Source: Octopus vulgaris
Lineage: Eukaryota
Reading direction: 5' to 3'
NCBI GenBank assembly: GCA_951406725.2
Contig: OX597818.1
Span: forward strand, 136,834,001 to 136,898,000
DNA: 64,000 nt
Part shown: piece by piece, positions 45,797-47,126 of the stretch
Layout of the letters: every line of letters begins with the position of its first letter
Numbering within the stretch: position 1 is the stretch's first letter
Notes under the pieces: model-generated
Database searches by the model: none
Told to the model about the DNA's origin: nothing
What the model saw: only the letters and a program-made list of their open reading frames with translations
Position numbers and translations under genes: made by a program

Positions 45797-45963
45797 ACTA
45801 TATAGAGTAATGTGAATGCCTAAAAATTTAAGTGATCAAAATTAAAATTTTCTATCAAAATTTCATGTTAATTTATGCTTCAAACAGTGTTTTGATAATG
45901 GCAAAGTTTTGTTTTGCTTAATTCTTCATTATCTCCAAAATTAACTGAAACAAAGATAGCATA

Positions 45964-46304
45964 CAAACAATTGCAGTGTGGAAGGTGTTTATAAGCCATT
46001 TAAGAAACACACAAAAACCGTTAGATTCACTTCAACATTTAAATTTAATTTGTCAAAATATTTTCATCACTTTGAGACCGCGACCTGTTCACTGATATGA
46101 TGCAGCACAAAGTTGTGTCAGTGAACAGGTCGCGGTTTCAAAGCGACGAAAATATTTTGACAAATTAAATTTAAATGTTGAAGTGAATCTAACGGTTTTT
46201 GTGTGTTTCTTAAATGGCTTATTAACACCTTCCACGCTGCAATTGATTTCGTTCCAGCACATGATCTCAGATCAAGTCACTCGCTATGCAAGTACATCTC
46301 CGTA
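45964..46304. mobile_element. Palindromic Penelope-like insertion with a 12-bp TSD and two hammerhead motifs
   Basis: Arms 45968-46097 and 46116-46245. TSD AAAGATAGCATA at 45952-45963 and 46305-46316. Confidence 0.8.
46116..46162 (+). ncRNA. Minimal type I hammerhead motif with G3-C8 covariant core
   Basis: TGTCA-GTGAACA-G-GTCGC-GGTTTCAAA-GCGAC-GAAA-ATAT-TT-TGACA. A mirror copy lies on the minus strand at 46051-46097. Confidence 0.65.
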
Positions 46305-47126
46305 AAAGATAGCATATTTCAACAGAAATGTGGAAATGAACAGGTTAAAAGAGTACATTGTAATATGACCTAAGTCTGGTTGCTAATTCTGGTAGGGACA
46401 CTTTCAGAGTTCAGTAAACGCAGCCATATTTGACTGAAATCATGTTGGTCTGACTGGATAATCAACTCTGAAACATCTGATTTGGTTTAGAGAGGCAGAA
46501 CTATAAGAAATAAAGGGTAGAAAGAAATATATTGATGGGAGGGAAAGGTGGAAGGAGATGGGGTGGATGGATGAAGTAGAGAGAGAGATATGAGAAAGAG
46601 GAGGAGGTAGAGAGTGAAGGATAGATGAGTAGAGGGAGAGAGAGAGCTAGAAAGACATAGGACGAAAGTGGTAGAGGGAAGAGAGAGGAAAGAAGGAGAG
46701 AAAGAGAGGAAGGGGTGGGTAAGGAGAGAGATAGAAAGACAAAGGAGGAAAGTGGTAGAGGGAAGAGAGAGGAAAGAAGGAGAGAAAGAGAGGAAGGGGT
46801 GGGTAAGGAAAGAGGTAGAGGGAGTTGAGGGAGGAAGTAGGAGGTGGGAAGTAGAGAATTGAAAGTGAAAGTTGAGATAAGGAAAAGGAATATAAAGTAT
46901 AGAAAGACAAGGAAGAGAGAGAGAGTAAAGGAGACAGGAGAGGAGAAGCAGAAACAGAGAGAGAATACCTTGGAGTAATAAAAAAAAAGGACAATGTGTT
47001 GACTGTGAAATGAAAATGGAAGGTGGAAAGGAGGGGAGAGAGAGAGAGAGAGAAAGAAAGAAAGAAAGAGGAGTGAGTGAGTGAGTGAGTGAGACAGTGA
47101 GTGAGTGAGTGAGTGAGACAGTGAGT

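Follow-up and report, generated by a model that had tools for sequence, protein, structure and literature searches.

The palindrome found in the window, by which we mean the whole 64-kb stretch of DNA analyzed here, is a 5'-truncated head-to-head insertion of a Penelope-like element (PLE), and its layout is routine for the family to which it belongs. With moderate confidence, we propose that the pLTR of this short insertion carries a G3-C8 hammerhead motif homologous to the C3-G8 motif of a sister family, that the swap likely preserves weak cleavage dependent on dimerization or on protein, and that such cleavage is likely not needed for insertions of this kind.

The inverted arms (45965-46095 and 46118-46248) are 131 nt each and 95% complementary, confirming the near-perfect inverted repeat described in an earlier note on this DNA. 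They differ at 6 of 131 positions, and the CpG decay that the note had seen in the left arm accounts for three of these differences, the other three being non-CpG. The proposed 12-bp target-site duplication (TSD) is likewise upheld, as the 12-mer at 45952-45963 recurs at 46305-46316 and nowhere else in the 64-kb window; its first A might be element sequence. The palindrome is shorter than the direct unit, with the right unit (46099-46304) extending 56 nt past it into the PLE "tail". The features of the locus are as follows.

45952..45963, no strand: left target-site duplication, whose 12 bp match the most frequent non-simple TSD length
45965..46095, minus strand: inverted, 5'-truncated pLTR arm, which stops at the first family end-point, S1, the tail being absent
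46051..46095, minus strand: hammerhead remnant with G3 (46092) and C8 (46087) present, a stem I of 3 bp and a CpG-decayed stem II; predicted to be dead
46096..46098, no strand: non-templated filler at the head-to-head junction, from comparison with family copies
46099..46304, plus strand: direct unit, the 3' part of the pLTR, from the main family 5' end (likely the transcription start) to the second end-point, S2
46116..46162, plus strand: minimal type I hammerhead motif with G3 at 46121 and C8 at 46126; predicted cut between 46157 and 46158
46214..46304, plus strand: initial ~30 codons of the PLE RT-endonuclease ORF; codon 4 is a stop in the window copy
46249..46304, plus strand: PLE "tail", the span from S1 to S2, from the bimodal 3' ends
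46305..46316, no strand: right target-site duplication

The window is otherwise filled by dispersed SINE-like repeats, direct and inverted (e.g., 43033-43180/45545-45692 and 44782-44926/49298-49442), and by long microsatellites. None of its 53 frames of at least 120 aa resembled a real protein when inspected by eye.

A DNA search with the element returned 3,218 candidates, of which 40 were scored, at 95 to 100%. Across the genome, 6,567 sites matched a degenerate core pattern exactly (reversed control, 0), and 8,090 matched a pattern near the ORF start. Longer copies of this family, here family A, continue upstream, first through a 3' region rich in microsatellites and then into a GIY-YIG domain (PF01541, E 1.6e-5, above the cut-off), and two pLTR arms flank a 1025-aa open frame that has the RT motif YVDD and a CX3CxxC linker; Pfam gave no RT match in this ORF, RT being assigned from the motif and homologs. 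The ATG 66 nt after G12 (window 46214) reads into the ORF in four copies (L144, L145, L156, and L157), and the pLTRs occur in tandem or inverted, include the ORF start, and come with a one-sided tail and a TSD. With a single ORF that encodes RT and, at its C-terminal end, GIY-YIG, family A belongs to the EN+ Penelope-like retrotransposons, which bears out the Penelope-like origin suggested earlier as well as the inverted pLTR arrangement, visible in the arms of the window palindrome. By motif, it would be of the Neptune or Nematis type. The closest database protein to the family A ORF is labeled as octopus and is encoded in the same genome at 100% identity, and a metagenome scan for relatives with pLTRs yielded two short contigs carrying the ORF only. 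We rejected a non-LTR retrozyme, which is defined by head-to-tail tandem monomers with a hammerhead each and without an ORF (10.64898/2026.07.22.740005, as far as its available portion goes); family A copies are dispersed singles or head-to-head twins from an ORF-bearing element. Beside one young copy lies a decayed twin insertion from this lineage, with G3 and C8 still present in one arm (L130:1240-1601); searching with it yielded an unrelated repeat and tails of family A, with no separate family. Separate LINE RT fragments, which we take to be RTE-like, adjoin another family A copy (L092:1-1106).

The hammerhead motif of the right arm is complete, with a core at 46121-46127, an extra G at 46128, a 5-bp stem II, GAAA at 46148-46151, a palindromic 4-nt stem III/loop, U16.1-U17 at 46156-46157, and a 5-bp stem I. 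It is the single match on both strands of the 64-kb window to a descriptor allowing any Watson-Crick 3-8 pair, and this descriptor gave no match for an opposite-strand reading. Shuffles of the element matched in 5 of 5000 cases with loose stems and in 0 of 5000 with 5+5-bp stems; whole-window shuffles gave two matches in 20. The left arm fails the descriptor: it ends 3 nt upstream of G3, where it abuts three filler bases, so its stem I has only 3 bp, and its stem II is weakened by CpG decay. Thus, of the hammerhead proposed for each arm, the right one stands with its full motif and the left one, which lacks the TGTCA of stem I, does not, so that two ribozymes are not supported. Stem I of the right arm is shortened by an uncommon G at 46115, where almost every other copy has T, and the pairing probabilities of stems I.1 and II.1 were 0.01 and 0.75 for the window copy versus 0.93 and 1.0 for a young family A copy folded from its 5' end. 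Unconstrained cofolding did not give the dimeric hammerhead fold. A read-through RNA of the locus is predicted to form a 131-bp hairpin (-216 kcal/mol), in keeping with the masking that the earlier note had foreseen.

Within the family, core positions U4, G5, A6, A9, G12, A13, A14, A15.1-U16.1, and H17 were each conserved in 153 to 159 of 160 copies, a set partly selected on the core. The hallmarks of the minimal hammerheads (min-HHRs) of PLEs (PMC4209133) are all present in family A except C3-G8. Like these, family A has the pLTR location, the extra nucleotide between 9 and 10.1, G10.1-C11.1, a vestigial palindromic stem III, U17, dual motifs on opposite strands, and mostly truncated copies. 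Unlike them, it carries G3-C8, which appears in none of the legible rows of their Fig. S3, all C3-G8 or U3 forms; the natural covariant there is U3-A8, and the inserted nucleotide has the consensus H, this being G in family A. The 3-8 pairing is kept and its identity (CUGANGA) swapped. As had been anticipated, the motif is invisible to a CUGANGA search, since its core is G3-C8, and an Rfam scan of the window showed no hammerhead among the matches listed (150 of 161, E ≤ 1). Surveys based on CUGANGA can therefore miss whole PLE families, which is relevant to elements said to lack hammerheads. The cleavage triplet UUU, previously regarded as unusual, is not novel, because U17 is common in the rows of Fig. 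S3 of PMC4209133 and one of them, from Crassostrea gigas, has UUU.

The interpretation of the motif as a hammerhead with a swapped 3-8 pair is supported by a sister family. Family B, found via protein P0002, has many intact ORFs of ~1,312 aa, and its protein is 55% identical to that of family A over 815 aa; the two grouped apart from other relatives with a support of 1.0 in a tree limited to relatives of at least 700 aa, shorter matches being left out. Its motif lies 111 nt before the ATG (66 in family A) at the same pLTR position, and the cores align without gaps. The family B core pattern has 3,879 matches genome-wide, and among the first 100 of these, C3-G8 was found in 98, with C9 in 92, the canonical A9 in 5, and U9 in 3. 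Family B shows compensatory changes relative to family A, among them A-U instead of G-C in stem II, G-C instead of A-U in stem III, and C-G instead of U-A at position 3 of stem I. The extra G after position 9 is common to both, and loop II and the flanks have diverged. Because its stem I is imperfect and C9 is present, family B failed the strict hammerhead descriptor; the dominant form with C9 departs from canon, which fits relaxed selection. Like family A, it has two 3' end-points, here 56 nt apart. A distant-query search for a third related PLE family, a stricter first look, returned 43 matches, all belonging to A or B. Because hammerheads generally have C3-G8, the swap would be derived in family A, and the 3-8 covariation between A and B represents one family pair and one event. 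With over 6,000 copies beside a canonical sister, the natural G3-C8 core provides evolutionary support for the 3-8 pair. As to family B itself (L335-L364 and L365-L384), it is young and has a long asparagine-rich insert near the N terminus, resembling the N-rich inserts in Penelopes of Adineta. The dominant family B hammerhead combines C9 with U17, canonical A9 being in the minority, and A9 is accompanied by C17 in the copy that was aligned (L368).

Among the first 100 of the 6,567 family A matches, 94 were G3-C8, two were G3-G8, one each was G3-A8, G3-U8, U3-C8, and C3-C8, and none was C3-G8. G3-G8 occurs in 217 of the 6,567 matches (3.3%), a frequency several-fold above that of other C>G changes in the column profile. 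The expectation that G3 and C8 are fixed together, to be abandoned if the two varied independently, is therefore not supported: G3 is fixed and position 8 varies alone in these 217 copies, which partly fulfils the refutation set in the earlier note. G3-G8 copies are scattered over older sublineages, including ORF-linked ones, and 3-8 pairing is therefore not required for mobility. With the endonuclease region as an independent marker, and with 14 rows without a linked pLTR left out, 6 of 13 rows of the older clade were G3-G8, two of these six loci having been fetched because they carried G8; C8 was present in 33 of 33 rows of the younger clade (32 G3 and one U3), two or three of which are the same insertion twice. 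Templates with G8 were themselves transposed, as shown by some insertions in which both arms, or both pLTRs, carry G8. Short-branch copies of the older subfamily, in G8 and C8 forms, cluster on contig C16 (L415-L417, L419, L421, L422, L424-L426, L429, and L430).

An ancestral C3-G8 subfamily within family A was considered and rejected: only three of 17 canonical-pattern matches were family A copies, approximately the number expected from two independent changes, four were junction artefacts, and the rest appear unrelated. Over the motif, no G>C site reached 2% in contigs from three other organisms, so G3 is common to them. The G3-G8 pattern fits a path from C3-G8 through G3-G8 to G3-C8. A loss from G3-C8 on a side branch fits too, because the root of the family A tree is weak; its outgroup branch is long, and the order G8 to C8 rests on this unreliable root. 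Uniformity within the family reflects descent and not selection, because copies are neutral after insertion. The series C3-G8-A9, C3-G8-C9, G3-G8, and G3-C8 nevertheless constitutes ready-made natural alleles to probe the role of PLE hammerheads.

The 5' ends of family A copies cluster upstream of the core, with 42 of 88 arms at positions 17-30, i.e., 13 to 26 nt upstream of G3, and another 14 of 88 at 31-44, in part an alignment artefact of a T-run. There was no pile-up at the predicted cut, with the 5' ends of 2 of 88 arms within 3 nt of it. In copies that begin at the main 5' end with no longer templated stretch ahead of it, the preceding base was G in 24 of 42 cases, C (templated) in 12, T in five, and A in one. 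From this we infer that the main 5' end is a capped transcription start, some of the preceding G being due to microhomology. A branch-point-like ACTAAC, a pyrimidine run, and an AG stand directly before this likely start site (L061-L090); they may represent either an initiator or, as in Penelope, the acceptor of a retained intron, and no splice joint was seen at this signal, the upstream repeat being skipped. RNA read ends showed no cleavage footprint in fragmented libraries from a related organism, whose reads cover the family pLTR on both strands, a kind of data that says little about cleavage or about the window locus; none of the sequencing runs listed as containing the locus was of RNA. 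Given the mobile G3-G8 copies and 5' ends that do not accumulate at the cut, these insertions seem not to depend on cleavage.

A G-C swap of the hammerhead 3-8 tertiary pair is a textbook engineered rescue. In the published portions accessible to us, the engineered double change C3G/G8C partly restores a PLE hammerhead whose activity is abolished by single changes (PMC11167929), and when all pairwise changes of another hammerhead were scanned, no double change in the core except this swap gave rescue (PMC9901934); engineered G3-C8 also appears in PMC3884650. The min-HHRs cleave weakly, as dimers (PMC4209133). Residual cleavage by the family A motif is somewhat probable, and cleavage at the window locus would be much less likely. 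An alternative that we consider possible, if rather doubtful, is that the motif descends from a C3-G8 ribozyme and is catalytically dead, G3 having been fixed by drift in a master copy and C8 having arisen as a chance second change, with the stem-loop kept for protein binding, promoter function, or translation. The past mobility of G3-G8 elements with ORFs and the 5' ends without a pile-up at the cut agree with this, as do the normal insertion of HHR mutants in vitro (PMC11167929) and the proliferation of Naiads without canonical HHRs (PMC8557442), each as described in the available part of its source. However, U4, G5, A6, A9, G12-A15.1, U16.1, and H17 have all been kept despite 45% protein divergence from family B, and of three possible changes at position 8, the one that became fixed restores a Watson-Crick pair.

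Natural compensatory change at the 3-8 tertiary pair has a precedent in the U3-A8 covariants of Perreault et al. 2011 (PMC3088659); these, as far as the accessible text goes, are a transition-type swap (C-G to U-A), whereas family A shows a double transversion (C-G to G-C) together with an unpaired G3-G8 form in the genome. The Poseidon PLE PAc of Anolis (Frangieh et al. 2024, PMC11167929, consulted portion) shares with family A a hammerhead near the ORF start, two end-points in the 5' region of the ORF that define the tail, and AT-rich targets; its HHR, for whose cleavage the element protein was needed, is dispensable for insertion, and its C3G/G8C form is partly active. Its G3-C8 is engineered, however, and family A differs in its tail of ~60 nt, its hammerhead 66 nt upstream of the ATG, and its CX3CxxC linker. 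In a 2026 octopus repeat annotation, Penelope-like families are listed, and the word ribozyme is absent from the portion of the main text available (PMC13282606). Taken together, the insertion is of a known kind, and the putative natural ribozyme variant appears to be new in the literature searched and well supported by sequence homology. No report of a natural G3-C8 hammerhead was found in that literature, a search short of some key hammerhead surveys. The Seehafer 2011 descriptor is said to have perhaps allowed 3-8 swaps, so an earlier listing of G3-C8 is possible.

The palindrome, which had been presented as something special, is common in the family: head-to-head twins made up 43 of 78 sampled loci (drawn from the first 100 places for the ORF-start pattern, of which 99 were used, after removal of six duplicates of one multiplied insertion), a fraction in which twins get two chances of being sampled. 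Many family A copies are single-armed, and the arms have ragged inner and fixed outer ends. The 3' ends fall at two points ~60 nt apart, S1 and S2. Among the unique twins over all loci analyzed (n = 97), 79 had one short and one long arm, four had equal ends, and 14 had an unclassified end; one S1 and one S2 arm were thus combined in 79 of 83 classifiable twins (p 4e-19). Non-simple TSDs peaked in length at 12 bp (13 cases among 100 twin insertions). Inverted, 5'-truncated pLTRs with a one-sided tail and a TSD are known for PLEs, as described in the available parts of PMC3846280 and PMC8557442, and the PLE tail corresponds in vitro to the stretch separating two RT start sites, according to the accessible part of PMC11167929.

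That the window locus instead serves as a functional hairpin, as a substrate for siRNA production or editing or as a ribozyme/hairpin conformational switch, is improbable. The predicted 131-bp hairpin and the A>G (19) and T>C (20) sites in family RNA reads, versus 2 to 4 in DNA contigs, would be in line with such a role, but about half of the family insertions are such twins, and editing is not separable from alleles because the reads come from another organism and span many loci, with other change types also raised. It is very unlikely that the motif resembles a hammerhead by chance and that the palindrome is itself the mobile unit, a DNA element of the foldback or MITE type: the locus is short, palindromic, TSD-flanked, and noncoding and has no Rfam hammerhead among the matches listed, but the ragged inner and fixed outer ends, the many single-armed copies, the long copies running into the RT-GIY-YIG ORF, the descriptor chance of 0/5000, and the homologous canonical motif in family B contradict it.

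Returning to the PLE insertion that we favor, the arms of a twin bear on the number of RNA templates used. In 73 twins with at least 50 shared columns, arms were discordant at 10.5% of subfamily-diagnostic positions versus 4.0% of positions elsewhere, and arms with shuffled partners differed at 39% of diagnostic positions. Diagnostic differences were absent in 48 of these twins, numbered at least two in 15 (four of which are one multiplied insertion), and at least three in four. In one twin (L223), the arms differ at 5 of 9 diagnostic positions, including position 8 and a loop II indel, and this twin and four others (L284, L262, L265, and L281) have arms from different subfamilies within one insertion; the window arms differ at one diagnostic site. 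Since arms of one twin can belong to different subfamilies, at least a few insertions used two different RNA templates, with gene conversion after insertion as an alternative. Neptune and Nematis EN+ PLEs (Craig et al. 2021, PMC8557442; Arkhipova et al. 2013, PMC3846280), in the portions available, resemble family A in the C-terminal GIY-YIG, the CX2-5CxxC linker, the (TA)n bias, and the inverted 5'-truncated pLTR with one-sided tail and TSD. In contrast, self-priming on one template, as proposed in the accessible part of PMC3846280, would not give the mixed-subfamily arms seen in some family A twins, whereas a dimeric protein extending both strands (from the part of PMC11167929 available) would. 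Mixed-subfamily arms and the strict pairing of one S1 with one S2 end thus offer a genomic test of self-priming against two-template priming on two strands.

In the mechanism that we envisage, modeled on the accessible portion of PMC11167929, the RT-endonuclease would cut AT-rich DNA on both strands, and reverse transcription would be primed on each strand at a separate internal site within the beginning of the ORF, proceeding ~200 nt back to the RNA 5' end. The templates would be uncleaved, probably capped RNAs, sometimes two different molecules. The core may have changed from C3-G8 to G3-C8 probably via the unpaired G3-G8 state, still mobile. At the window locus, neither arm would be likely to cleave, the left being truncated, the right having a weakened stem I, and both being predicted to be masked in read-through RNA. 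Only tentatively do we extend this to a joint claim of an active natural G3-C8 hammerhead, a full compensatory path in one genome (C3-G8 sister, mobile G3-G8 intermediate, and a young lineage with G3-C8 fixed), and a PLE priming both target strands on two RNAs at two start sites.

One twin insertion with identical junctions occurs at many places on contig C1 (L260, L299, L300, L303, L304, L307, and L331; also L043 and L045), where it was apparently carried by another repeat or by duplications.
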